Assembly (NCBI GenBank): GCA_964539825.1 | Contig: CAZIKF010000001.1 | Span: forward strand, 22,695-86,694 | From: an uncultured bacterium | GTDB lineage: Bacteria; Muiribacteriota; UBA6191 | Direction of reading: 5' to 3' | DNA length: 64,000 nt | In this document: one piece after another, positions 5,841 through 64,000 of the stretch | Layout: the number at the start of each line of letters is the position of its first letter | Numbering within the stretch: the stretch's first letter is position 1 | Program-made: the position numbers and the translations under genes | Notes under the pieces: generated by a model | What the model was told of the DNA's origin: nothing | Seen by the model: the letters and a program-made list of their open reading frames with translations, nothing else | The model's database searches: none

Positions 5841-6122
5841 GATCTCAATGATCTTTTCGTTATTGAAGGGAGATTCGATTAGGGGAATGAGCCGGAAAGT
5901 CCCTTATCATCCAGTAATCTGACCCGGGATTTTCTTTCGCTTTGTAGATTTTTTACCGGCGTTTGAAACAATTCAGGGTAAAACAGGGAGCTTCGTTGAA
6001 TTGGTCAAGCCGCTATACCGAAAGGTAAACGGGATACCAGTTTGCAGGTTCATGACCAAAATAAGCACATCACAGGTGAGCAAGTGCTTTTGGGTATTAA
6101 AAATCCTTTTTTAGGAAGTGAC

Positions 6123-6446: not shown

Positions 6447-6858
6447 TTCCTTTTAATCGCAGCCTTACCATGGATCGGGCTTTAGATTCTATCGCCCTTT
6501 CAGACTGTAAACTCCTCTTGGGAACCTGTGGATCTTTTCCAAGAAGTCTTTGATTAGCTCTAAACAATGCTTGCTGCGCACGCTCCACATCCACTTCTTC
6601 TGGCAGTTCAAAATAGTCCGGACACAGGGTCAGTTCATTCTCTACGAAATGTCCAATACCGTTAAAAACAACAAATTTCTCCGAGTTCTTATCATGGATA
6701 ATCTCACACATTCCAACCCCGAGCATAAATACCAGGGGGGCATGATTGGGATAAATCTCCATATACCCATCGGATGCATAAATGGAAACCTGAGTCGCTG
6801 TCATTTTTACCGGATCACGGCCCGGTGAGACAATTTTGATCGGGATTTCTTCGTCCAT
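6430..6858 (-). CDS. atpC: F1Fo ATP synthase epsilon subunit
   Basis: 142 aa lying immediately downstream of atpD. N-terminal beta-sandwich pattern (…KIVSPGRDPVKMTATQVSIYASDGYMEIYPNHAPLV…) and a C-terminal helical hairpin. Confidence 0.85.
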   Translation of the reverse strand: MDEEIPIKIVSPGRDPVKMTATQVSIYASDGYMEIYPNHAPLVFMLGVGMCEIIHDKNSEKFVVFNGIGHFVENELTLCPDYFELPEEVDVERAQQALFRANQRLLGKDPQVPKRSLQSERAIESKARSMVRLRLKGIAIDE

Positions 6859-12628: not shown

Positions 12629-13387
12629 CTAATTCACTGTATACAGCAGTAATAAAGCCACTACCAGGGCAAACACACACACAGACTGAGCAACAGCCTG
12701 TCCTATTAACATTGTTCTGACGAGGGTGAATCGTAATGTTGGCTTCTTTGCTGTGCCGGCACATGATGATGCCGCAGGTAAACCACACCCAATTCCTGAG
12801 CCTATCGCACCAAGTCCAATCGATAATCCTGAACCTAATAGTGCCATTAATTTAGGCAGTCCCGGATAGACTGAGTAGTCGATGCTTAACAAGAGCAGCA
12901 GTGCAACCACAAGGCCGAAAACGGCCGGATTTCCCGCCACAGCGGAGCCGAGCAGGTGAACAAACTGAACATCACCCTGGGCACTTGGATTTCTTGATAT
13001 ACCCTCGACAGCTTTACTTCCCGTCAGCCCCATTCCAATTCCGCCGCCAATTGCGCCTAGACCCATGGCCAGCCCGCAGGATAATAGCCCCGCAGCCATA
13101 AACCAGAAGTTCTCCGTGGTAACCAAATAGGGAAGCGGTACAAAGAGTAAAAGGCAGGCAACCACCAGGGCAAAAATCGAAGCGGATTCTGTGACTGCCT
13201 GAGTTATGAGCATGGTTCTTAGAATCAATACATCCTGAACGGGTTGGCGCGCCATCCCCAAAACAGCAGAAGTAGCGGACCTAAAGGTACCCAATCCGGC
13301 GCCAATGGCACCAAAACCCATGCACAGACCAGCTGCAAGAAACTTAGCCCCCATCACGATCTCATTAGCATACTCAGAGAAGATCAT
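12629..13387 (-). CDS. fused triple-hairpin c-subunit-like proteolipid (252 aa, 6 predicted TM helices); only hairpin 1 retains the helix-2 carboxylate
   Basis: Three consecutive units, each with a GxGxGxG helix, a polar loop (ARQP / SRNP / AKKP) and a second helix. Hairpin 1 has AVTESASIFALVV, hairpin 2 has AVAGNPAVFGLVV, hairpin 3 has AVAQSVCVFALVV. Located between atpB and atpE. Confidence 0.75.
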   Translation of the reverse strand: MIFSEYANEIVMGAKFLAAGLCMGFGAIGAGLGTFRSATSAVLGMARQPVQDVLILRTMLITQAVTESASIFALVVACLLLFVPLPYLVTTENFWFMAAGLLSCGLAMGLGAIGGGIGMGLTGSKAVEGISRNPSAQGDVQFVHLLGSAVAGNPAVFGLVVALLLLLSIDYSVYPGLPKLMALLGSGLSIGLGAIGSGIGCGLPAASSCAGTAKKPTLRFTLVRTMLIGQAVAQSVCVFALVVALLLLYTVN

Positions 13388-17762: not shown

Positions 17763-20519
17763 GTGCCCATCAAAACTCTCACGGAGTATAATGATCCCAT
17801 GACCACCGAGCCCACACTTAATCTCCAAAAAATTCAGACTCTGCTGCATTCTTCTCATATGGATGAACCCATTAAAGCTCTAAAGGAATTAGAGGCATTT
17901 CCCTTAAAAGGGGAAGTTTTGGAAACCTATATCCATATTTTAGATCATGCTCTTTGGAAAGTTCGTAAATTGGCAGCCAGGCGACTAGAACAGGAAATTG
18001 GCATTACTTTCCCGCATGTAGCCAAGTGTATTCTGGATGAAACCGCTGATCGCCGCTACTGGGCTATGCATATTCTTCCCGCCGCGGGTAAAAGAGCTCT
18101 CAAGCCTTTAATGGAAGCAGTCGAGCGCCTGGAACATCCTGAAAACCTCTTCGCATTAAAGGCTCTCTCTAAATTAAAAGAGCCTTCCAGCATCCCCTTT
18201 GCGCTTGAAAAGCTCAAAGACCCAATCTGGTCTGTCCGTAAAGAGGCTTCCGAACTTTTGTGGAATTTAGGATCCCGTTCGATTCAGCCCATGAAAAAGG
18301 CCATTCAGAGTGGAACTGACGATCAGCGATATTGGTGCTTCAAAATTTTGGGACGCATTGGTGGAACCTCTGTTCTCAAAACACTCATGGAAATTCTTGT
18401 CTCTAAGGATTATGACGATAAGGTTCGTTCCTATGCACTGAGTGGAATTCAGGAAGTTCGCGCACCTCAATCGATCCCAATCTTTATCAATACCCTGGAC
18501 TCTGATCTGTGGGTCCTCCGAGCCCAGGCATCGAAAGCATTAATGGAGGCCGGTAGAGATCCCCATCGCGAACTGGTTTTAGCCATGAAGAAAGGTTCTC
18601 GTTCCGTTCGCTACTGGGGAGCGATTGTACTCAAGGAAATAGTGGAGGAAAAGCATACCGCACTCATCGAGCAATTACTAAAAACTCCAGATCTGGATCT
18701 CAGGTTCCACGCAATCTCCATCCTGGGTAAAATCCGCTCCACCTCCGCCGTGGAATTACTCGCGGGAATCCTGACAGATTCCCAGTGGTACTTACGGAAG
18801 CATGCGACAGATGTCCTGATTTCCATGGGACCGGTTTGTGTCGCGCCCCTTGCCACAAGAATTGAAGAGGGCTCTGAAGAAAAGCTGTACTGGATATGTC
18901 AGATTCTGGGGGAGGTGGGACAGCCCACTTGTTTCCATGCTCTTGAAAAACTTGTAAGAACCGGCTCTAAGGAAGTACGTCTATATGCCCTTGAGGCCAT
19001 TGCCTGCATTGGTGGAGATCGAGCGGTTTCTCTATTAATTGAAGCATTCGATAACCAGTCCTGGGTGGTCCGCTCCAGGGCACATGAGTATTTACTTCAG
19101 ATTGGTCCCCCCGCATTTTTACAGCTATTTGAAGGCTTATTAAATCCCGTAGATTCCATGCGTTTCTGGTGTGAAACAACTATTGAGGAATCTGAATATT
19201 ATGGTGCCCGCACCTTGATGAAATTTCTTGGTTCAGGGACCGAGCGTGAATCCCAGGACATTTTAAATCAACTCTCACAGCTAACAGATTCGGTTTTGAT
19301 GGAGCTTTATCAAAACTACTCCCTGAAACCGCAGGATGTCTTGGACAAGCTGTCTATCGCTCAGTCCCTCAATACATCCGCTTTGACCCATTATTCTTCT
19401 GAAAGCGCCAGTCTCGAATTCAGTTTCTTCCAAAAATCTGAGTACCCTTATGAGCAGGTTCAGCGCTTTAAAGAAATTCTTAAAGAGTCTGCGGAATTAG
19501 GAGCAACTCAGCTTCATTTACGCATCGGAACACCTCCCATGGCGCGGGTCGACGGAGTTTTATGTAAATGCGGGTCCAGGACCCTTACTAATCAAGATAT
19601 TCAGGAATTCCTCTCCCCCTATCTAAGTTCTCCCCAGGTCCAGGAATTTCAGCGCGAAGGAACCCTTGGAGTAGACATCCCTTATCAGGAACGCGGGCGA
19701 TTTAAAGCACATATTTTCCGGCAATCCAGGGGAGTTGAGTGTGTGCTGCATTATTCGACAAATACAATTCCTGATTTCCAATCTCTAAATCTTCCCTCAG
19801 ATTTTTTAAGCCATATTGCTAAACTTCCGCAGGGATTGATCCTAATTAGCGGTCCGAACCAGTCTGGCAAGAGTACTTGCTGCATCAGCCTCTTAAGTTA
19901 CATCAACCGCAATTTTGTGAAGAATATTATGACTGTGGAAGATCGCATAGAATACCCATTGCAGAGTGCGAAATCCCTCGTGTCACAAAAGGAGATGGGT
20001 AATGATCTTCACAGTCTGAGCAGTGCTGTTGAATCTCTCTCCAGGGAGGACCCTGATGTAGCTTATCTTGCTCGGATTCCTGAATCTCGCTCCCTTGAAA
20101 CACTGCTGCAGCTTGCCTGTTCCAGAAGCCTTGTGATCGTGGAATGTAATGCGAATTCATCTCGTGAAGCAATTGAGAAGATCTTATATCTATTCCCCCC
20201 GAAACTCTTAAAGGTGTATGAGAGACTCTTCCAGTCAGCGCTCCAGGCTTCGGTACACATCCGTCTTCTCAATAACGCACAAGAATCGGGCCTGGTTCCC
20301 GGGGTTGAGTACTTTCTGAATAATTCCAAAATTTCAGAGTGCCTTTCCATTGAATCTCTTGAAAAGCTCTCACGCGTTTTAAGAAGTTCAAGACAAGAAA
20401 CCAGTGTTTCTCTCGATGATTACCTTATGGGGCTCGCTTCAGAAAAGAAAATTACCTATCAGGAAGCAGTCCGTTTCATGGAGGACAAATCACGGGTGTC
20501 TGTGGATCAGATCTGGTGA
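17763..20519 (+). CDS. HEAT-repeat (PBS-lyase-like) domain fused to a PilT/PilU-family secretion-ATPase domain with degenerate Asp-box and His-box
   Basis: The N-terminal ~520 aa hold repeated …VR..A..AL..IG……L…L.D… units. The C-terminal ~400 aa align to PilT: GATQLHLRIGTPPMARVDGVL, Walker A GLILISGPNQSGKST, TVEDRIEYPL (PilT has EDPIE), SREDPDVAYLARIPE (PilT has DPDIILVGEMRD), and VIVECNANSS (PilT His box is FGTLHT). Confidence 0.75.
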   Translation: MPIKTLTEYNDPMTTEPTLNLQKIQTLLHSSHMDEPIKALKELEAFPLKGEVLETYIHILDHALWKVRKLAARRLEQEIGITFPHVAKCILDETADRRYWAMHILPAAGKRALKPLMEAVERLEHPENLFALKALSKLKEPSSIPFALEKLKDPIWSVRKEASELLWNLGSRSIQPMKKAIQSGTDDQRYWCFKILGRIGGTSVLKTLMEILVSKDYDDKVRSYALSGIQEVRAPQSIPIFINTLDSDLWVLRAQASKALMEAGRDPHRELVLAMKKGSRSVRYWGAIVLKEIVEEKHTALIEQLLKTPDLDLRFHAISILGKIRSTSAVELLAGILTDSQWYLRKHATDVLISMGPVCVAPLATRIEEGSEEKLYWICQILGEVGQPTCFHALEKLVRTGSKEVRLYALEAIACIGGDRAVSLLIEAFDNQSWVVRSRAHEYLLQIGPPAFLQLFEGLLNPVDSMRFWCETTIEESEYYGARTLMKFLGSGTERESQDILNQLSQLTDSVLMELYQNYSLKPQDVLDKLSIAQSLNTSALTHYSSESASLEFSFFQKSEYPYEQVQRFKEILKESAELGATQLHLRIGTPPMARVDGVLCKCGSRTLTNQDIQEFLSPYLSSPQVQEFQREGTLGVDIPYQERGRFKAHIFRQSRGVECVLHYSTNTIPDFQSLNLPSDFLSHIAKLPQGLILISGPNQSGKSTCCISLLSYINRNFVKNIMTVEDRIEYPLQSAKSLVSQKEMGNDLHSLSSAVESLSREDPDVAYLARIPESRSLETLLQLACSRSLVIVECNANSSREAIEKILYLFPPKLLKVYERLFQSALQASVHIRLLNNAQESGLVPGVEYFLNNSKISECLSIESLEKLSRVLRSSRQETSVSLDDYLMGLASEKKITYQEAVRFMEDKSRVSVDQIW

Positions 20520-20600
20520 TTCTATCTATTTACCCAAACACGATTTGGCTTGTCTGGATTCCCGACCAGACCAGGAATTAGCAACCGGGTATACCGATTG

Positions 20601-22706
20601 TTATTCGGTATAGAAGGAAGCTGCTTCCGGTAATGCCAGCTCTTCCCATACTGTCCGTATGAGGTATTTTTCCTGGGGACTTAAAGGAACCAGATTTCTC
20701 CCCTGAACCCACTGGTTTGCGTCACGAAATTTTCGTGCTTGGATGTAAAGAATCAGTTGGTACCATGGATTTTTATCCGAAGGATTAATTCTCTCAGCTG
20801 GGTCTGAGATTAAGATCCCAGGGAATTCCCTGAACACCCTTTCTTTAAATAGCTGCTGCAAAAACGTCCCTGAATTTCGAATTTCCCAGTGGGAATTCTT
20901 GCTAAATTCCTCAAAAGACTTCAGGGCACTGCCCTGGAGTTCTCCACTCACCAGCAAAGTTTCAAAAAAACGAAAATCCTCGCCGAGCGAATCCCATTCT
21001 CGAAGTTCACGAATAATTCTGTGAGCTACCCCATCCATACCCTGGTGATAAAACTGAAGAGCAAAACCTTGCCATAGAGTTAAGTCTAGAGGGCGAGCTT
21101 CCCGGGCTAGAACATCATCCACCTGAAGAAAAACCAACTGTTGTCTGAGTTTGTCGAGGTCAACTGTTGACTTGCCTTCAATAGTACCTAAAAATTGCGA
21201 GATCGAGAGACTTGCTGCAAAATTTTTCTTATTGAGGTTTTTAACCCTGGGTAAAAGTCCTGAATAAACAGCTAAACCATCTTCAAGAAAAAGAATTTTT
21301 GCAGCAGGAAAAGTTTTTGAAAATGGAGCTAGAAGAGTTTTAAGGTCCCTGGCCTTATAGGATTTTGCGGTAAAGATCAGAATGCCTCCCGAAAGGCGAT
21401 CAGATAAAAACCGAATCCACTCCGCATATTCTCCTGCCTTCAATATTCTATGAAAGCTCATCGCCAGATAGTTTGGTTTCTTTTTTGACAGTAGATGTCT
21501 GACCTTTGTGCGCGAAATGGAGCCCCTCAATTCTGCCAGATAAAAAGTAGGGTTGAGCTTTTCAGTGCTCGAGCTTTTTTCTAAATCAAACACTCGAACC
21601 GCGTCCCCTTGATCCGCGTCATCCAGTAAATTGAAAAGAATCCAGGGTTTCTCCCCATAGACATCCTCAAAGTGGTCGCTCAAGGAAACTTTGCGGTAAA
21701 GAGTGATTTCACCATTTTGAACTCGGGACAATTGATGAAATTGAAGAAGTTTAGGTTGAGTGCCAGCAACAGACTTCATCAACGCAGCTTCATTAGGAAG
21801 ATGGGTAAGCCCGTAATAAAACACAAAACCAACGAGGCCCATCGCGATCCACGAATGCCCGGAGCCATAAAATATTAGCAAACGAGCGGAAAGAAAAAAG
21901 TGCCACAAAACGATTCTTTGATTGGGACTTTGCAAGTCAAAAAGAGTGCATAGGACCAAAAAAATCAACACGGAAAGAGAAGTTGAAATTCCAGACCTTC
22001 TAATCGGAGGGGAAGGGACCACAAGGCAAACAATCATTGAGCCCACTACCAGGGCACTCATGGCAGGGCTGGGATAAAGTAGAAAAAAGGAGCCCAGTAA
22101 AAATGCATGGAAGAAGGTCCAATCAAAAACCCTACGACTCATTCGCTCCAACCAAAACTTTCTTGGCTTTCCCTCTAAGAACAGAAGAAAAAACGCGCTA
22201 CATCCGGCAAGAACCTCAGGTCGCACACCGGCTGAGAGAAAAACTAAGCCTAATACAACACCAATCCATATTTCCCTCTCTATGGGCCTGCACCGCTTTT
22301 GATTCCTGACAATTTGGGTTTGGCCAAGAAGAAACAAAAAGCCGGCCAGTAAGAGGAACCCGGATAAGACCCAGCCTGTAGTGAAAACCCCCGATATGGC
22401 TAAAAATAAAGCCATCAGGGTGCACAAGGGAAAACCGGGGGACGGCAAAAAACGTGAGTTCCTTAGAGATACATAGAGAAAAGCCCATGGAATCCAGCTG
22501 AAAAAAAGAACTACAAAAAGTATGAAAATGTGGGAACGATGGTATGCCTCCAATAGATAGAACTGTGTCTGTAACAGGTCTAACAGATGAACAAAAAGAA
22601 ACTTCGGAAATCCTGCTAACACAAGAATTAGAGATCCGAGAAAGAAAACTCTACCTACCTGATCGTAAAGGGGATCCTTTTGAAGGGTCCGCTGTACGAA
22701 TAGCAC
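20601..22706 (-). CDS. polytopic membrane protein with a large C-terminal soluble domain (701 aa), function unknown
   Basis: The N-terminal ~350 aa hold 9 or more hydrophobic segments. The C-terminal half is hydrophilic with no recognised motif. Confidence 0.55.
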   Translation of the reverse strand: MLFVQRTLQKDPLYDQVGRVFFLGSLILVLAGFPKFLFVHLLDLLQTQFYLLEAYHRSHIFILFVVLFFSWIPWAFLYVSLRNSRFLPSPGFPLCTLMALFLAISGVFTTGWVLSGFLLLAGFLFLLGQTQIVRNQKRCRPIEREIWIGVVLGLVFLSAGVRPEVLAGCSAFFLLFLEGKPRKFWLERMSRRVFDWTFFHAFLLGSFFLLYPSPAMSALVVGSMIVCLVVPSPPIRRSGISTSLSVLIFLVLCTLFDLQSPNQRIVLWHFFLSARLLIFYGSGHSWIAMGLVGFVFYYGLTHLPNEAALMKSVAGTQPKLLQFHQLSRVQNGEITLYRKVSLSDHFEDVYGEKPWILFNLLDDADQGDAVRVFDLEKSSSTEKLNPTFYLAELRGSISRTKVRHLLSKKKPNYLAMSFHRILKAGEYAEWIRFLSDRLSGGILIFTAKSYKARDLKTLLAPFSKTFPAAKILFLEDGLAVYSGLLPRVKNLNKKNFAASLSISQFLGTIEGKSTVDLDKLRQQLVFLQVDDVLAREARPLDLTLWQGFALQFYHQGMDGVAHRIIRELREWDSLGEDFRFFETLLVSGELQGSALKSFEEFSKNSHWEIRNSGTFLQQLFKERVFREFPGILISDPAERINPSDKNPWYQLILYIQARKFRDANQWVQGRNLVPLSPQEKYLIRTVWEELALPEAASFYTE

Positions 22707-22827: not shown

Positions 22828-23772
22828 TTAGTAGATAACTTTCCCTAATGCGGATTCAATGAGAGAGAGGGCTGTACGCGCGGTTTGGTTCGAGTGATCC
22901 AACAATGGATTTACCTCTACCATATCCATGCTGCGGATCGCATTTGTTTCCGAGAATAATTCTAAAACAAGATGAGCTTCCCGCAGGGTTAGTCCACCCG
23001 CGACTGGTGTCCCCGTACCTGGAACTGACCGCTCATCAACGCCGTCTATATCAAAGCTTATATGGATAGGCTCTCCCTTAGGTGAACAAATTCCAATTGC
23101 CTCTCGAATGCATTTTACAGCACCTTGTTCATCAATGTCCTTCATGGAAAAAACTTTGATTCCCAAGTCTTTTACAATGGAACTCTCTTCGGGATCAACG
23201 CTGCGGACTCCAAATAAGACAACTCTGGAAGGATCAATAAATTTCCCGTCAAAGAGTTCACACAATCTTGTATGACCTTTACCTAGTGCTACCGCTAACG
23301 GCATTCCATGCACATTTCCTGAAGGACTAGTCCGATCAGTATTGAGGTCTGCATGAGCATCGAACCAGAGTAAGCCCGGCGTTGTCCAATGCTGTCTCCA
23401 ATAAGAGTTAATCGCGGAAATTGAACCCATTGCTACGGAATGATCACCGCCCAAAACTAGTGGTAAAAACCCCTTTTCCAAAGACTGAAATACCTTGGCA
23501 CGTACCTGTTCCTGAAAAGGTATGATTTCCTCAAGATAACGAATTTGCCTGGGCGCAAACCCTACAGGTGGATAGGGCTCTTCAAGAGTGTTTAAATTCC
23601 CCTGATCTACACATTTCCAGCCCAGACGGTCTATCCTCTCCCGTAAACCAGCAAGACGTATCGCATCCGGACCTAGAGATACTCCTTTAGAAGGAGAAGC
23701 TAATCCTATAGGTGCGCCAATTACCTCGATTACTTTGGGAGTCGTATTCTGCGAGGAGCCATTTTTTTCCAT
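22828..23772 (-). CDS. rocF: arginase / ureohydrolase-family enzyme
   Basis: Mn-binding motifs LVLGGDHSVAMGSI, WFDAHADLNT and SFDIDGVDERSVPGTGTPVAGGLTLREA, plus MVEVNPLLD. The closest resemblance is to arginases rather than agmatinases. Confidence 0.8.
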   Translation of the reverse strand: MEKNGSSQNTTPKVIEVIGAPIGLASPSKGVSLGPDAIRLAGLRERIDRLGWKCVDQGNLNTLEEPYPPVGFAPRQIRYLEEIIPFQEQVRAKVFQSLEKGFLPLVLGGDHSVAMGSISAINSYWRQHWTTPGLLWFDAHADLNTDRTSPSGNVHGMPLAVALGKGHTRLCELFDGKFIDPSRVVLFGVRSVDPEESSIVKDLGIKVFSMKDIDEQGAVKCIREAIGICSPKGEPIHISFDIDGVDERSVPGTGTPVAGGLTLREAHLVLELFSETNAIRSMDMVEVNPLLDHSNQTARTALSLIESALGKVIY

Positions 23773-23777
23773 AGGCT

Positions 23778-23927
23778 CTTATTATATACTCAAAATGAAG
23801 TGTTTTGCCCGGATTCCCGGATAAAACGGAATCTTACGATTCCCGAGCTCATCTGCGATTGAGCCTTCTTGAGTATGAACCAACAAGTGGGTAAACCACC
23901 TGCTTTCGGTATCTATCCAAACTGGGG
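23778..23927. repeat. copy 1 of a ~150-nt intergenic element family (TATTATATAC box, CAAAATGAAGT, GGATTCC/GGAATC-N4-GATTCC repeats, ATGAACCAACAAGTGGGTAAACCAC block) abutting the arginase start
   Basis: Compared directly with 36160..36322 and 41036..41100. Read on the minus strand, the conserved core is ACTTCATTTTG(A/G)GT[ATATAATA]. Confidence 0.6.
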
Positions 23928-23928
23928 A

Positions 23929-25077
23929 TTAACGATCTAATTCATCGGAAAAGGACTCATCGGGGCGGACCTCTGAGTTTTTAGGAAGGGTATTCGTATT
24001 TGGGTGCCCTTCCCTTCCAGCAGGTAAATCTAATTCTTTTAATGCTTCACTCCACCTATCTCTGGCATCCTGCTCAAGTTCTGAAACTCCGGTCAGGATC
24101 AGCCCCTTACTCTTAACTTCCTGGGAAGGATTTACAAAGACGGAGGGCTGGTTTGAGGTCAGGGAACGCACTTCAACCCGTCCCTCAAAAACTGAGACTA
24201 CGGAGAGAGTCGCAAGCGGCCCCCTGGTACCAGTGGATACAGAATCTCCCTCTACATCCACGGAAAAGACTGTTCCACGAACCGCGGCGATGAGATTGGG
24301 AGTTTTAACTTCAAACTTAGTGCCTTTTCGAACAATATGTACCCAGGAACTACCATGGAAAAGACGTAGAGAATTGCGAGCAATTTGAATCCTGGTGCGA
24401 GATTTGAGCCGTAGACGGACCTTATCTTCGGGATAAACAATCGAAGCGGTGGCCTTCGCTCCAGTGCGCACCTCATCCAGGAATGCCAGCGAATGTATCT
24501 CTCCATTCTTAATGATTTGGAATCCATTGGAATTGCGGACATGTACCACACCGCCAGAAACTTCAAGCTTCAGAGGGAATTCACCTCCACCCATTTGATG
24601 CTGAGTGGGATCGCTGCTCGATCCATCCCCACTTAACCCGTGAAAGGATTGGTCGATCTCCCCCCCGGCATCCACTCTCACAGTCATAGTGGGATCCGGT
24701 CCAGAATTCTTGTTCCATGGAAAATGAAAGGGTAAATCTAACTGTGTAATGGAAACAACAAAGACCGCGGCAACTGCCATTCCTGCATATTTCAGATAAG
24801 GGGCAATAGACTCAAAGCCACTCCCATAACCTTTTGCCCGGGTATTTTGAAAGGAAACATCGGGAAGTGAGCTCATTACCCTTTGAGTGAAGTCTGCGGG
24901 AAGGTCCGGACAGGAATCCTCCTCTTCAAAGAGTTCCACTAAGCGCTTATATGACTGGAGCTCCTCACGGCAGCGGGAGCAAAGCTCTACGTGCTTCTCA
25001 AGCTGAATTCTTTGTTCATGCGATAGGGAGAGATCCAGATAGTGTTGGATCAGCTCATCAACCATTTCGCATTTCAT
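23929..25077 (-). CDS. membrane-anchored anti-sigma-factor-like protein (N-terminal zf-HC2 H..C..C motif, TM helix, FecR-like C-terminal domain)
   Basis: HYLDLSLSHEQRIQLEKHVELCSRCREEL (HxxxCxxC zinc-finger anti-sigma motif). TM segment AGMAVAAVFVVSITQL. C-terminal …AAVRGTVFSVDVEGDSV… resembles the FecR fold. Confidence 0.55.
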   Translation of the reverse strand: MKCEMVDELIQHYLDLSLSHEQRIQLEKHVELCSRCREELQSYKRLVELFEEEDSCPDLPADFTQRVMSSLPDVSFQNTRAKGYGSGFESIAPYLKYAGMAVAAVFVVSITQLDLPFHFPWNKNSGPDPTMTVRVDAGGEIDQSFHGLSGDGSSSDPTQHQMGGGEFPLKLEVSGGVVHVRNSNGFQIIKNGEIHSLAFLDEVRTGAKATASIVYPEDKVRLRLKSRTRIQIARNSLRLFHGSSWVHIVRKGTKFEVKTPNLIAAVRGTVFSVDVEGDSVSTGTRGPLATLSVVSVFEGRVEVRSLTSNQPSVFVNPSQEVKSKGLILTGVSELEQDARDRWSEALKELDLPAGREGHPNTNTLPKNSEVRPDESFSDELDR

Positions 25078-35746: not shown

Positions 35747-36124
35747 TCATTGGGATCTGGGCTTAAGGTCTAGATGGCAGCGGGGACAACTCTCTTTGGT
35801 ATAAATACGACAGGTCTTACAACGCCAGCGATAAAATCGGCGCTTCGCCCAAAGATTCAGTGTTTTCCCAGACTCCTTCTTCTTTAAGTGAACCTTGCCG
35901 CTGCTTTCCTCAGCCAAAGAAGAACCTGGGTCTGATCGAAGGGCTGCAATTGATTTGGAAGGAATATAGGGCTGCCCCAGGAGCCATGACAATTGTTTTC
36001 GTATCCATTCAATCCTCGTCATTGTTGGGCTCACATTCTCCCTCTCAATCTCACCCTGCACTGCCCCTGAAGCGCTACTCAAACAAACAACCAAAAGAAT
36101 CCATCCAAAATGTTTCGTCTTCAC
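35747..36124 (-). CDS. small secreted protein with a C-terminal CxxC…CxxC zinc-ribbon-like motif (GTG start)
   Basis: Signal peptide (ILLVVCLSSASGA) and a C-terminal RWRCKTCRIYTKESCPRCH. Confidence 0.4.
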   Translation of the reverse strand: MKTKHFGWILLVVCLSSASGAVQGEIERENVSPTMTRIEWIRKQLSWLLGQPYIPSKSIAALRSDPGSSLAEESSGKVHLKKKESGKTLNLWAKRRFYRWRCKTCRIYTKESCPRCHLDLKPRSQ

Positions 36125-36159: not shown

Positions 36160-36322
36160 AATTCAGCACTCTTCATCACCCAAAATGAAATCTTCTGACC
36201 CATAAATGGTCCCGACCAGAATCTCGTGATTCCTGATCTCGGCTCGAATGAGCAGTGCATAGGCATGAACCAACAAGTGGGCAAATCACATGCGTCACGA
36301 TATAGGTTTCGGACCAATTGGA
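36160..36322. repeat. copy 2 of the intergenic element family (CCCAAAATGAAATC, GAATC-N4-GATTC palindrome, CATGAACCAACAAGTGGGCAAATCAC)
   Basis: An ~85-nt stretch aligns with 23826..23909, and a 17/17 identical core ATGAACCAACAAGTGGG is shared. Lies upstream of the minus-strand small Cys-rich gene and divergent from acyP. Confidence 0.6.
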
Positions 36323-37539: not shown

Positions 37540-38541
37540 TTAAGGTAAGGGGTGGAATCCAATCGAATCCCTTAACTGCTCCAGAGTATTCTCTGCAAGT
37601 TTCCGTGCGGTTCGAGCCCCTTCGTTGAGAATATCCATGAGGTTGTCAGGATCTCTCATCAATTCCTCGTAGTGTTCTCTTACTGGCTTCAGAAAGTCAC
37701 TCACCACTCTGGCAGTTTCGATTTTGAGATGCCCATACTGCAATTGAGCGAATTCTGTTTGAGCTGCTGTAAAGGATTTTCCTGTGATAGAACAATAGAT
37801 GGTCAATAGGTTTGAAACTCCCGGCTTCGAAGCCGGATCATAACAAATCACAGTATCAGAATCCGTCACGGAGGATTTGAGTTTTTTTTCGATTTGCTTG
37901 GGTGAGTCTAAAAGCCATAGATTAGCTTTATCGTCCTCATCAGACTTGGACATTTTTTTAAGAGGATCCTGCAAGGACATAATCCTGGCCCCCAACTTAG
38001 GAATAAAAGGCTTGGGAATCTTAAAGAGTTCTTTCCTATAGTGACTGTTAAGCCTCTGTGCCAAATCTCTGGTAAGCTCCAAATGCTGCTTTTGATCTTC
38101 TCCTACAGGAACAAGATCTGTTTGGTACAACAAAATATCAGCAGCCATCAAAATGGGATAAGTAAGCAAACCTGCATTCAGATTCTTTGCATACTTTTCC
38201 GATTTTTCCTTGAATTGAGTCATTCTCTGCAATTCACCCAATCCCGTAAAACATCCCAACATCCAGGCTAATTCGGTGTGCTGATGAACATGAGATTGAA
38301 GAAAGAGGGAGCATCTTTTCGGATCAAGCCCACAGGCAATATATTGAGCTACAAAAGAAAGGCAGCGATTTCGAAACTGCTCGGGATCCTGTCTGACAGT
38401 GATTGCATGTAAATCCACCACCATGTACAGGCAGCTATATTCTTCCTGAAGCGCAACCCAATTTTTAACTGCCCCTATAAAGGTGCCTATATTTAGATTT
38501 CCCGTTGGCTGAATTCCGCTAAGAATGATTTTCTTGGACAT
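37540..38541 (-). CDS. trpS: tryptophan--tRNA ligase
   Basis: Class I motifs SGIQPTGNLNIGTFIGAV (HIGH region) and KMSKS. I use the ATG at 38541 (MSKKIILSGIQ…, preceded by AAGAAGGGA). The ORF-track start at 38601 adds 20 residues not seen in TrpS N-termini. Confidence 0.88.
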   Translation of the reverse strand: MSKKIILSGIQPTGNLNIGTFIGAVKNWVALQEEYSCLYMVVDLHAITVRQDPEQFRNRCLSFVAQYIACGLDPKRCSLFLQSHVHQHTELAWMLGCFTGLGELQRMTQFKEKSEKYAKNLNAGLLTYPILMAADILLYQTDLVPVGEDQKQHLELTRDLAQRLNSHYRKELFKIPKPFIPKLGARIMSLQDPLKKMSKSDEDDKANLWLLDSPKQIEKKLKSSVTDSDTVICYDPASKPGVSNLLTIYCSITGKSFTAAQTEFAQLQYGHLKIETARVVSDFLKPVREHYEELMRDPDNLMDILNEGARTARKLAENTLEQLRDSIGFHPLP

Positions 38542-38670
38542 TTTCAATCCCTTCTTTACTGCAAAATAAGTGACTTTTCCACTTACCTGGTCCAAACTCA
38601 ATAAGCCTCAACCGAAATGAGCCCGGAAATCCTAAAATTCTACTCTCGGCGAGAATCCGGACTAGGGAAT

Positions 38671-39441
38671 TCATGGGGAACATAAATAAGAACTACCCAA
38701 ACAAAAAACTTCTCCGAGACTTAGTTCGAATTCCCCAAATGAATCTTCCGCTGATTCCAACTTAACTCTGACCAGATCTTGGATTTTTCCGCAAATTCTA
38801 TTGGAAAACTCATGCGGAAAGGTACGATGGGATCGAATTCGATCCTCCAGCTCATGGAGCAATGGACGATGCACAGGAATCCTGACAAGATTAGTTCCAC
38901 TCCGATCAAATCCCGCTGTGATAGTGAGCCTCCACATATCTCGAAGACTCTTGGATGAATTCAAATCTTCAATCCTCAAGGCTGGTTCCAGGGAATAAGG
39001 CAACCAATCAGGCATAAATTCAGGGAGGTAGTAACGGATCAAAAGAGCCCCCTCTGGATGGAGATACAGCCTTGCCTTTCTTAATACCTCCAGTACGTCG
39101 CCATAGGTTGGCTTCGTAGCATCCCAGTAGAGAAAATGAAAAAAGCCTTCCGGAAATCCGAATTTTAGAAATTCACGACCAAAAACAAGGAATTGCGGCT
39201 CTTTCCTTCTAAGTTCGTGCAGAAGAGAAGGATCTTCTTCCATTCCATAAAACTCAATCAGTTTTGGAAAAGGGAAGGCTTCAGCCTGCTTCTTCAGCCA
39301 GCCTCCCTCTGAACATTGAATCTGTAATACCCTGATAGGCTTAAGAATACCAAGCCTTGAATACAACAATCCCTCCAGGTAGGGCTCCTGAAAAGGGAGG
39401 GAAATACCTCCCGGAATTCCAGGTACGGAGAGGTCAGGCAT
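38671..39441 (-). CDS. hypothetical protein with a weak class-I methyltransferase-like pattern
   Basis: Segments resembling MTase motif I (IRVLQIQCSEGGW) and the post-III motif (LHPEGALLIRY), but without the canonical GxGxG. Confidence 0.4.
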   Translation of the reverse strand: MPDLSVPGIPGGISLPFQEPYLEGLLYSRLGILKPIRVLQIQCSEGGWLKKQAEAFPFPKLIEFYGMEEDPSLLHELRRKEPQFLVFGREFLKFGFPEGFFHFLYWDATKPTYGDVLEVLRKARLYLHPEGALLIRYYLPEFMPDWLPYSLEPALRIEDLNSSKSLRDMWRLTITAGFDRSGTNLVRIPVHRPLLHELEDRIRSHRTFPHEFSNRICGKIQDLVRVKLESAEDSFGEFELSLGEVFCLGSSYLCSP

Positions 39442-53851: not shown

Positions 53852-55132
53852 TTACTTAATCATGAAGCTCAGCTTCCCTTCCACATGGACCTGTCCGTTT
53901 ACTCTTGCCACTCCATCGACTTTTCCAGTTCCGCCTCTGAGCTTTAACACCGAAATTTCGAGTTCCAATTGATCTCCAGGATAAACCGGCTTACGAAATC
54001 TAACTGAATCAAGACCGGTGAAAAACGGGGTCTTACCGTAATTTCCCATCATGGAGAGTAAGCAAACCCCAGCCACCTGGGCAAGAGCTTCTACGATGAG
54101 AACTCCCGGCATCAAAGGACGATCGGGGAAGTGTCCATTGAAGAATTCTTCATTTCCCGTCACACTCTTTATCCCTACAGCCCCCTTTCCAACCTCCATG
54201 CGAACTATGCGGTCCACAAGCAGGAAGGGATAGCGATGTGGAATGATGCGCTTAATATCATTGAGGTCCAGAGATTCGCCATCTTCCAGACCAACCTCCC
54301 GAACCAGACACTCTTCTTCGATCATTTTCTTCAACAGTCGTATATTTGTTCTATGGCCGGACTTGATACCCACAAATTTTCCAAGAATTGGAAATCCGAA
54401 GACATTCATATCTCCGTAAAAATCCATAATTTTATGCCAGGCAAATTCGTTAGGAAACCGGAGACCTTCCTCATTTAAGCACTTCTGCCCATCGACCACA
54501 ACAGCGTTTCGTAGACTACCACCAAGCGCCTGTCCAGCTCTATGCTGATGCTCAACCTCTTCGAGTAAGCAGAATGTTCGCGCTCGAAGTAATTTCTCGG
54601 CCGGGTCAATATCCTGAAAATTTACTTTTAGATGGCGGACACCAATCATGGTCCCAGAATAATCCAGAGTATAGGAAATGCTGAACTCATTAGAAGGATA
54701 GGCAATCAGGACCGCGTCATTATCCTCAACCTCACAGGTCTTGACTACGCGATATTGCGGCAACTCGACATCTTGTTCAACAATCCCGGCATCCACAAAA
54801 TTTTGATAAAATTCAATACCGCTACCGTCAAGAATTGGTGGTTCGTCGGAATCAATTTCAAGTGTTAGATTGGTGAGATGCAAGGCCCCAATCGCTGCCA
54901 TGAGATGCTCAAAGGTATAGATGGATTCATTACCGTCACTAAGATTGGTACCCCTCGAGATACCGTGTACATGGTCTACCGAAACCTTCAAACGATAATC
55001 GTCTTTATGCTTTTTTACAAAGACTAGACCGTGATTAGGTTCGGCAGGGCATGCCTTAAGTGTGACAGGCTTTCCCGTGTGCAGTCCCAGATCGGTAAAC
55101 TCCACCGGACTCGCCAAAGTCCTTTGCTTCAT
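53852..55132 (-). CDS. lpxC/fabZ: bifunctional UDP-3-O-acyl-GlcNAc deacetylase / 3-hydroxyacyl-ACP dehydratase (LpxC::FabZ fusion)
   Basis: N-terminal LpxC (MKQRTLASPVEFTDLGLHTGKPVTL…HLMAAIGAL…) is continuous with a C-terminal FabZ hot-dog domain (GHFPDRPLMPGVLIVEALAQVAG). 426 aa. Confidence 0.9.
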   Translation of the reverse strand: MKQRTLASPVEFTDLGLHTGKPVTLKACPAEPNHGLVFVKKHKDDYRLKVSVDHVHGISRGTNLSDGNESIYTFEHLMAAIGALHLTNLTLEIDSDEPPILDGSGIEFYQNFVDAGIVEQDVELPQYRVVKTCEVEDNDAVLIAYPSNEFSISYTLDYSGTMIGVRHLKVNFQDIDPAEKLLRARTFCLLEEVEHQHRAGQALGGSLRNAVVVDGQKCLNEEGLRFPNEFAWHKIMDFYGDMNVFGFPILGKFVGIKSGHRTNIRLLKKMIEEECLVREVGLEDGESLDLNDIKRIIPHRYPFLLVDRIVRMEVGKGAVGIKSVTGNEEFFNGHFPDRPLMPGVLIVEALAQVAGVCLLSMMGNYGKTPFFTGLDSVRFRKPVYPGDQLELEISVLKLRGGTGKVDGVARVNGQVHVEGKLSFMIK

Positions 55133-63159: not shown

Positions 63160-64000
63160 ATGAATGAATCAAAGTACTGGAACCGGGCCGCCTTAATAGG
63201 ATTTCTCCTCACCCTGCTGCTCCAGGGATGCGGGGGCGGGGGCGGGGGTATTCCCTCTTCAGGTGGAACCACCGGCACTCCTACGGCACCAGGCTCGCCT
63301 TCTCAAAGTGCCGGAGTTGTGGCTCAAGTCAATGGAGAAGTGGGAGTTCCGCAATCCACCAGCCAGTCTATTCTTCGAAATTTGTCCAGGGTCTCCAAAG
63401 TTGTTTCCAATGTAGATCTCCAGAGGCAGACTAATTCACCGCTTTCAGGTGTCACGGTTGAGCTCTGGGCAGTCCGCGATGAAGGCGACATTGGCGAAGT
63501 TGAGTATCTCAAATTAGGGCAGGCTCTCACCGGGGCAGACGGTAAATATCAGATATCCATTTTAGGTACCGTCAACACCCAACTCCCATCACTATCAAAA
63601 ACTAGCTGTGTTACTAGCCCCCCATCCCTTTCCAAAACCATCTGTGTCACTAGCCTGGCATCCCTGTATATCTCTACCCACCTTGTCAAAATCAAGCTCA
63701 AAAGACCAAATTTTTCCCCACCCATAGATAAGAGCATCACTTTTCGCCCATCGGTTAATAACAAAATACTGGGGGAGGCGGATTCCTCTGTTGACCTCAC
63801 TATTGACGCTTCCATAGACGTACAGCAAGGACAGAATCTAAAGGTTGAGGTTATTAGTACAAGGGAACTGGAAGAGTGGGATAGGCGCCTCTCCGGCTTT
63901 CGTACTGATTTTGCTCAAAACCCAGGCTCCTTTGATTGGAATCCCAATGAATGGATTCCTCAAGATCTGAGCGAAAGACTTGTAATTCAGGAGCAGGTAG
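63160..64000 (+). CDS. 3'-truncated secreted lipoprotein (not in the supplied ORF track because it has no in-window stop)
   Basis: An in-frame stop at 63064-66 is followed by the first ATG at 63160. I translated it codon by codon to position 63999 without a stop. N-terminus MNESKYWNRAALIGFLLTLLLQGCGGGGGGIPSSGGTTGTP… is a signal peptide with a lipobox Cys and a Gly/Thr/Pro linker. All four listed minus-strand ORFs in this interval are antisense to it. Confidence 0.55.
   Translation, partial: MNESKYWNRAALIGFLLTLLLQGCGGGGGGIPSSGGTTGTPTAPGSPSQSAGVVAQVNGEVGVPQSTSQSILRNLSRVSKVVSNVDLQRQTNSPLSGVTVELWAVRDEGDIGEVEYLKLGQALTGADGKYQISILGTVNTQLPSLSKTSCVTSPPSLSKTICVTSLASLYISTHLVKIKLKRPNFSPPIDKSITFRPSVNNKILGEADSSVDLTIDASIDVQQGQNLKVEVISTRELEEWDRRLSGFRTDFAQNPGSFDWNPNEWIPQDLSERLVIQEQV

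Follow-up and report, generated by a model that had tools for sequence, protein, structure and literature searches.

Bacterial MITEs are described as sequences of <200 bp with terminal inverted repeats, 5'TA3' termini, a target-site duplication, and long stem-loops (PMC2229807), and the occurrence of long and short forms is also among their published traits (Delihas 2008, PMC2229807). The 64,000-nt stretch of DNA analyzed here (the window) contains a repeat that shows small size, no coding sequence, dispersed copies in both orientations, filled and empty sites, and terminal inverted repeats, in agreement with this description. With these features, the element is very probably a dispersed, noncoding, nonautonomous mobile repeat, that is, a bacterial MITE. 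When compared by description, it belongs to no named family, with no evident sequence relationship to Correia/NEMIS, ERIC, RUP, or RPE elements, and represents a new family of a known kind, previously undescribed, in an uncultured marine bacterium.

The Correia/NEMIS elements of Neisseria resemble this family in several respects. They are small, noncoding, and dispersed and have a long form (155 bp) and, through internal deletion, a short one (107 bp), compared to ∼130 and 84 bp here; their terminal inverted repeats begin with TA, and insertion takes place at TA; they often lie just upstream of genes, and their ends together with the flank can make −10-like boxes, as is also seen here; and their transcripts form long stem-loops (PMC2229807). 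In contrast to the Correia repeats of 24 to 26 bp, the terminal repeats of the element described here are ∼11 nt long and less perfect, no IHF site was identified in it, it has an additional 5' hairpin module and a third terminal motif in its interior, and the host is a marine bacterium and not a betaproteobacterium. The termini (TATACCGAAAG) are presumably also unlike the Correia terminal repeat, which we take to indicate a likeness in behavior and not membership.

Similar parallels exist with other families. ERIC/IRU is likewise an imperfect palindrome (∼127 bp) found in transcribed spacers in either orientation and inside operons, with short terminal repeats (7 bp in ERIC) and TA termini, and ERIC reportedly affects mRNA stability in a manner that depends on its orientation (PMC2229807). 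Two of the copies described below, c1 and c4, sit at what are operon junctions in relatives. ERIC is conserved over many enterobacterial genera, whereas the copies found here are lineage specific and absent from the sites of sister species, and the two show no sequence similarity. The RUP element of Streptococcus pneumoniae is comparable in its length of ∼107 bp, its short terminal repeats of 9 bp, and its TA target, and it contains stops in all six frames and is presumed to be mobilized in trans (PMC2229807); its partner with matching terminal repeats, IS630-Spn1, is known, in contrast to the present family, for which the window and the fetched loci yielded no partner. The RPE of Rickettsia are palindromic repeats of 105 to 146 bp that can insert into genes and add coding sequence, and c4 and c5 here also supply last codons and stops; RPE, however, are inserted in frame within open reading frames and are translated internally, whereas the present element, with stops in all frames, replaces nothing but the ends of genes. 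REP/BIME units of 20 to 40 nt, which are often clustered, do not match the single copies of 84 to 131 nt found here, and no RAYT gene was seen among the partly annotated open reading frames of the window.

The window holds six copies of the element, four long (∼130 nt; 129 to 131) and two short (∼84 nt; 84 to 85), with four on the minus strand, two on the plus strand, and unrelated contexts. The earlier note had recognized three of them upstream of the genes for arginase, a small Cys-rich protein, and pepA. All three are indeed homologous, but c4, c5, and c6 had been overlooked, and the region of 23778 to 23927 assigned to the first copy overlaps an element that is slightly narrower (23785 to 23913). 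Copies c1, c2, and c3 align without gaps over ∼130 to 135 nt on the minus strand, and their likeness far exceeds that of shuffled controls (local-alignment z of 24 for c1-c2 and c1-c3 and 7.7 for c2-c3; nhmmer E values of ∼1e-8 to 1e-9). The sequence blocks described as shared are real as well: ATGAACCAACAAGTGGG is found at exactly two positions in the window, 23875 and 36265 (chance expectation, 0.01), as is TATTATATACYCAAAATGAAGT (23780 and 41039; chance expectation, 0), and the GGAATC-N4-GATTCC palindrome is present in copies 1 and 2. With c1 as the sole nhmmer query against the window, c3, c2, and c4 are recovered with E values of 4.5e-9, 1.1e-8, and 2e-9, respectively. A profile built from c1 to c3 alone recovers c4 (E of 1e-5) and yields a partial match near 20520 to 20590, and a profile of six sequences, together with a terminal-motif search, served to delimit the short forms c5 and c6; over all copies, the nhmmer E values range from 1e-9 to 0.07. 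Copy c1 is closer to each other copy than those are to one another, and such a star-like similarity is the pattern of a repeat family derived from one master sequence. The ungapped alignment prompted a coding hypothesis, which was dropped because stop codons occur in every frame of c1 to c3, leaving the element without an open reading frame. No tRNA or tmRNA was found near the element.

The long copy c1 (129 nt, 23785 to 23913, minus strand) is, among the copies in the window, the one nearest the family consensus and lies between a FecR-type anti-sigma gene (23929 to 25077) and the arginase gene (22828 to 23772). The pairing of these two genes is an unusual conserved one, with a FecR/zf-HC2 anti-sigma gene directly upstream of arginase at a distance of 26 to 55 nt in all relatives represented by loci L071 to L076; in the window, the pair occupies 22828 to 25077 (minus strand) and is pulled apart by c1 in this species. 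The diverged long copy c2 (36175 to 36304, minus strand) is located upstream of a conserved 125-amino-acid (aa) Cys-rich open reading frame (35747 to 36124), in the spacer that separates this frame from a divergent acylphosphatase gene, and the long copy c3 (41044 to 41174, minus strand), also diverged, lies upstream of pepA (39434 to 40969). The distances to start codons given in the earlier note were roughly right: the TATAAT box next to c1 ends 8 nt before the arginase ATG, and the element ends ∼50 nt before the 125-aa open reading frame and ∼74 nt before pepA. Copy c4 (long form, 38555 to 38684, plus strand) is antisense within an operon of pepA, a 256-aa gene, and trpS and now parts the 256-aa gene (38671 to 39441) from trpS (37540 to 38541).

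Of the two short forms, c5 (84 nt, 20529 to 20612, minus strand; E of 8e-4 with the six-sequence profile) is situated between convergent genes, namely, a 701-aa open reading frame (20601 to 22706, minus strand) and a HEAT-PilT fusion (17763 to 20519, plus strand). The latter gene encodes a protein of 918 aa in which a long HEAT-repeat region is fused to a PilT/T2SSE-type ATPase, an arrangement conserved in relatives. Copy c6 (85 nt, 6014 to 6098, plus strand) occupies the spacer between ybaB and a 749-aa gene, antisense to both; it is the weakest member (E of 0.07 with the profile and 0.06 against c1, local-alignment z of 7.6) and retains both termini, TATACCGAAAG...TTTTGGGTATT. According to Pfam and NCBIfam annotation, the genes neighboring the copies are functionally incoherent. 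No copies beyond c6 came to light when 10 kb was added on either side of the window. A seventh copy from the same species, 88% identical to c1, was found in the ndk/Nif3 spacer of L061/L082, co-oriented with its downstream gene. A rough extrapolation from 5 long copies in ∼105 kb of DNA from this species suggests on the order of 100 or more copies per genome.

The ends of the element are imperfect terminal inverted repeats of the form (TA)TACCGAAAG...CTTTTGRGTA(TA). In the multiple alignment, similarity begins at (C)TATACCGAAAG and stops at TTTTGRGTATA; the two repeats, TATACCGAAAG and TATACYCAAAA, are short and imperfect, with ∼7 to 8 of 11 positions matching, and are found in c1, c3, c5, c6, L061, and L053. 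The motif TATACYSAAAR stands at both ends in inverted orientation. In c1, the 5' repeat is GATACCGAAAG (23903 to 23913, minus strand; family consensus TATACCGAAAG), a motif that also opens L061, L053, c5, and c6, and the 3' repeat is TTTTGAGTATA (23785 to 23795, minus strand), with the reverse complement TATACTCAAAA. A third copy of the terminal motif, ATACTCAAGAAG, is located internally. A partner bearing an open reading frame would share the bounds TACCGAAAG...CTTTCGGTA; neither the window nor the fetched loci contained a transposase or full-length insertion sequence with matching ends. One pair of terminal motifs, at 46498 (plus strand) and 48133 (minus strand), was considered as a candidate transposon and rejected since both lie within one continuous 2,048-aa open reading frame. 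The protein encoded there (42306 to 48452, minus strand) has an FlgL/flagellin-N terminus (hook-associated protein 3) and is several times the usual size, and it is conserved in relatives with 2,049 and 2,063 aa (L077 and L078).

The cleanest junction is that of c5, which has coding sequence on both flanks. The window reads TTC[TA]{TACCGAATAAC...GTTTGGGTA}[AA]TAGATAGAA, compared to TTC[TA]TAGGTAGAG at the empty site in L071, and this fits a TA target duplication with one copy mutated. A TA stands beside TACCG...GGGTA at 5 of 7 left junctions and 5 of 8 right junctions; off the pattern are the left copy of c1, which is GA, and the empty sites of c4, which show AA or A where TA would be expected. 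As judged from relatives with flanks that are ∼20% diverged, a TA target duplication at insertion is probable. For c1 and c3, insertion-point models with TA, ATA, a longer duplication, or an att-like core were compared, the flanks being too diverged to choose among them. The insertions also reach into coding sequence. The 5' end of c5 gives the 701-aa open reading frame its last codons (T-E-stop), with FYTE* here compared to FYR* and FYH* in relatives, and the c4 sequence now encodes the final codons and stop of the 256-aa gene, while the N terminus of trpS is shortened.

Comparison with syntenic loci of relatives, fetched through homologues of arginase and pepA, decides the nature of these sites. 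Two related species, relative A (L071, L072, and L077) and relative B (L073, L074, L113, and L114), show 77 to 81% and 76 to 77% protein identity, respectively, and more distant relatives (L075, L076, and L078) show 64 to 68%; the exact arginase protein of the window is itself encoded on many marine metagenome contigs and in the NCBI MAG GCA_018654805.1. Gene order is conserved in all relatives, and c1 to c5 are absent from the syntenic loci (1 to 3 related species for each site). The spacer between the FecR-type gene and arginase, which holds c1, measures 156 nt here, compared to 26 to 28 nt in L071 to L074 and 55 nt in L075 and L076, and the convergent genes at the c5 site are 81 nt apart here but 8, 7, and 2 nt apart in L071, L073, and L075. 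Between the 256-aa gene and trpS, the c4 site has ∼130 nt here, compared to 3 nt in L077, an overlap in L078, and abutting genes without a spacer in L113. At the c3 site, the ferredoxin-pepA spacer is 356 nt long compared to 251 nt, and the gap is clean in both L077 and L113; at the c2 site, 313 nt stands against 181 nt in L077, with a gap that coincides with the element. In the MAFFT alignments, the element corresponds to one clean gap at each site, and nhmmer detects no copy with an E value of <1 in any fetched locus of the relatives. The empty orthologous sites together with the conserved synteny mark c1 to c5 as lineage-specific insertions and not as conserved regulatory DNA; with respect to conservation in related genomes, a point raised in the earlier note, all five testable sites (c1 to c5) are empty there.

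The ndk/Nif3 site is less simple. Relatives A and B contain here a 60-nt stretch with 30 of 60 positions identical to the 3' half of the element, a score reached by 34 of 2,000 shuffles. This stretch may be an ancient decayed copy, in which case the family would predate the species split, and the weak similarity indicates that not every site is a simple recent insertion. In this spacer, the weakly similar segment shared by relatives A and B spans ∼70 nt (L079, 9825 to 9896; L115, ∼6740 to 6810). In the same region, the assembly L083 diverges fully from the same-species assemblies L082 and L084 past ∼10858, ∼1 kb downstream of the ndk/Nif3 spacer, which reflects either a rearrangement or an assembly chimera.

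Searches elsewhere returned few members. A scan of a genome collection with TTCATTTTGRGTATATAAT gave 34 hits, all of them single chance matches in unrelated AT-rich genomes, and the source species is evidently not in the collection. A scan of metagenome contigs with GATTCYG-N24-26-AYTTCATTTTGRGT gave 23 loci, among which only L061 and L053 are true copies, both in other contexts; L046 and L055 match by chance, in DNA whose GC content differs, and were rejected. Viral contigs, searched with two patterns, and plasmids, searched with blastn, contained no true copies. Copy c1 is 100% identical in six independent assemblies of the species and thus fixed. Three Logan contigs from independent assemblies end inside c1, and in the NCBI MAG, a contig end near c3 cuts pepA short; these assembly breaks are hints of repetitiveness.

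The earlier note had left a choice among a promoter/operator, a structured RNA, and a MITE-like repeat, and only the last survives, with its dispersed copies and empty orthologous sites. A very unlikely rival reading holds that the element is the shared promoter/operator of a regulon for amino acid or peptide catabolism, with a regulator bound at the GAATC/GATTC palindromes, TATAAT as the −10 hexamer, and a near-leaderless arginase transcript. Arginase and pepA are both enzymes of nitrogen and peptide catabolism, and c1, c2, c3, and the L061 copy are co-oriented with the downstream gene; however, the element is missing upstream of the orthologous genes for arginase, pepA, and the small open reading frame in every relative examined, c3 and c4 no longer carry the palindrome, and the remaining copies are misplaced for such a role, with c4 antisense in an operon, c5 between convergent genes, and c6 antisense in a spacer. 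The neighbors are also unrelated in function (Nif3, the trpS operon, and a TPR lipoprotein). The TATAAT hexamer, found after c1 and c3 as the earlier note had stated, is not a part carried by the element but a junction of its TA with an older host box. At c1, the hexamer (23781 to 23786, minus strand) straddles the element end, which contributes the first 1 to 2 bases, and the host flank, and boxes already exist at the empty sites, with GATAAT at the c1 site (L071 and L073) and TTATAAT at the c3 site (L077). The empty-site sequences are TTGTTATAATTGCGG in L077 and TTGATAATATGAGCC in L071, reading TTTGTTATAATTGCGG and TTTTGATAATATGAGCC, respectively, across the site. The presence of the box at empty sites shows the −10-like box to be older than the insertion, so that, as read from these alignments, the element would have inserted at the TA of a box already rich in AT rather than bringing the box with it. 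When c1 and the element strand of c3 were scanned with the sigma-70 consensus, neither a −35/−10 pair nor a promoter belonging to the element itself was detected. Position and orientation relative to genes are not fixed among the copies, a sigma-70-like site is missing from the scanned copies, and the genes are conserved without the element. At c1 and c3, the empty-site sequence is similar to the last ∼12 nt of the element (TTTTGA or TTTG before a TA-rich box), and this may reflect a target preference, sequence-specific targeting, or another integration mechanism. An unlikely extension of the MITE reading is that the element seeks promoters, preferring a TA just upstream of or within existing TTTG-N-TATAAT (−10-type) boxes, and has been co-opted as an insulator or attenuator cassette; if true, the native upstream promoter context would be replaced by a portable, strongly folding module with a terminator-like hairpin, uncoupling arginase from the anti-sigma gene and rewiring pepA and other genes in the lineage. 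Very unlikely is a mobile repeat that moves by a different mechanism, either as an IS200/IS605-type single-strand element (PATE/REP-like), a type with subterminal hairpins that inserts beside a specific short target and makes no duplication, or as a site-specific module integrating beside TTTTG-N-TATA-like sequences. Subterminal hairpins near both ends, the target duplication that is not clean at c4, and the resemblance of the c1, c3, and Nif3 empty sites to the 3'-terminal TTTTGRGTATA would suit such a mechanism, but the terminal inverted repeats, the TA at both junctions in most copies, and the fit of the c5 junction to a simple TA duplication argue against it, as do the lack of a conserved 4- to 5-nt target on one side only and a length of 130 nt, far longer than REP units.

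A structured cis-regulatory RNA, such as a riboswitch-like leader, or a multicopy family of small RNA genes is a further reading, close to the small structured RNA of the earlier note, and is highly improbable. On the gene-sense strand, c1 and L061 fold far beyond shuffled sequences (z of −5.75 and −5.69), with a 5' hairpin and a ∼90-nt domain that holds three hairpins and is closed by pairing of the internal ATACTCAAGAAG with the 3' end (alignment columns 46 to 53 with 129 to 136). The differences between these two copies avoid paired positions (6 of 92 paired columns compared to 10 of 38 unpaired columns), and a terminator-like hairpin lies inside the element. Against an RNA function, c2, c3, and c4 show no stronger folding than shuffled sequences do (z of −0.39, −0.10, and −0.53), the covariance check gave an RNAalifold covariation term of 0, and no strictly compensatory changes occur between the young copies. 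Rfam yielded no match at the gathering threshold over the whole window or at E values of up to 10 around c1. The opposite strand of c1 folds as well (z of −2.8), as expected of a DNA palindrome; moreover, copies exist in both orientations, their insertion is polymorphic between species, and the element has no detected promoter of its own. A riboswitch-type leader is likewise contradicted by the absence of the element from orthologous sites and the lack of covariation support. Structure thus belongs to young or master copies and is lost as copies stay in place, and its loss from c2 to c4 is evidence against an RNA function being selected for at the arginase, pepA, and Cys-rich protein genes. 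The terminator-like hairpin GGAATCGTAAGATTCC, followed by GTTTTAT (23821 to 23843, minus strand), passes a terminator-like scan and is kept in the young copies c1, L061, and L053; in c1, it stands in sense orientation between the anti-sigma gene and arginase, where the candidate terminator could exert a local effect on the junction.

With the element taken as a MITE, a course of events can be proposed. The repeat would have multiplied in this lineage by inserting at TA in AT-rich DNA, both within short spacers and where genes end, probably mobilized in trans by a TA-duplicating transposase of the IS630/Tc1-mariner type. Insertion of c1 would have split the tight anti-sigma/arginase junction, placed a strongly folding RNA segment with a terminator-like hairpin and U-tract before arginase, and left the older −10-like box beside this gene, while c4 and c5 would have replaced the last codons of two genes. 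The ∼84-bp forms may represent deletion forms of the ∼130-bp element, and the older copies c2 to c4 would decay neutrally with loss of the fold. The local consequences are by-products of insertion and not a shared regulatory design. The analysis removes a false lead since no signal of an arginase/pepA regulon is present, and it leaves the general view of bacterial repeats unchanged. The filled and empty pairs show how such repeats open operon junctions (from 26 to 156 nt), rewrite the 3' ends of genes, and break metagenome assemblies, and the family is useful in annotating and binning this lineage and in marking strains or species.

Several further features of the window were observed. GANTC was considered as a CIR-like methylation feature of the repeat and rejected because its 8 sites in 786 nt of element sequence are not a significant enrichment. 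In the window as a whole, GANTC is overrepresented, with 390 sites compared to 245 expected from base composition and 140 to 281 sites for other N-centered palindromic 5-mers, which could point to a methyltransferase specific for GANTC or to a codon effect. The ATP synthase operon contains a 252-aa ATP-synt_C gene (12629 to 13387, minus strand) beside a normal 88-aa c-subunit gene (L067, 208 to 1254), and a gene for a 5,927-aa FG-GAP/Laminin_G/He_PIG giant protein begins just past the window end at 64000 (L069, 10926 to 20696). The best named homologues of several window proteins come from Cloacimonadota-labeled MAGs with 55 to 60% identity, and the source lineage may be related to the FCB group; an LpxC-FabZ fusion (NF009667) is encoded at 53852 to 55132 on the minus strand.
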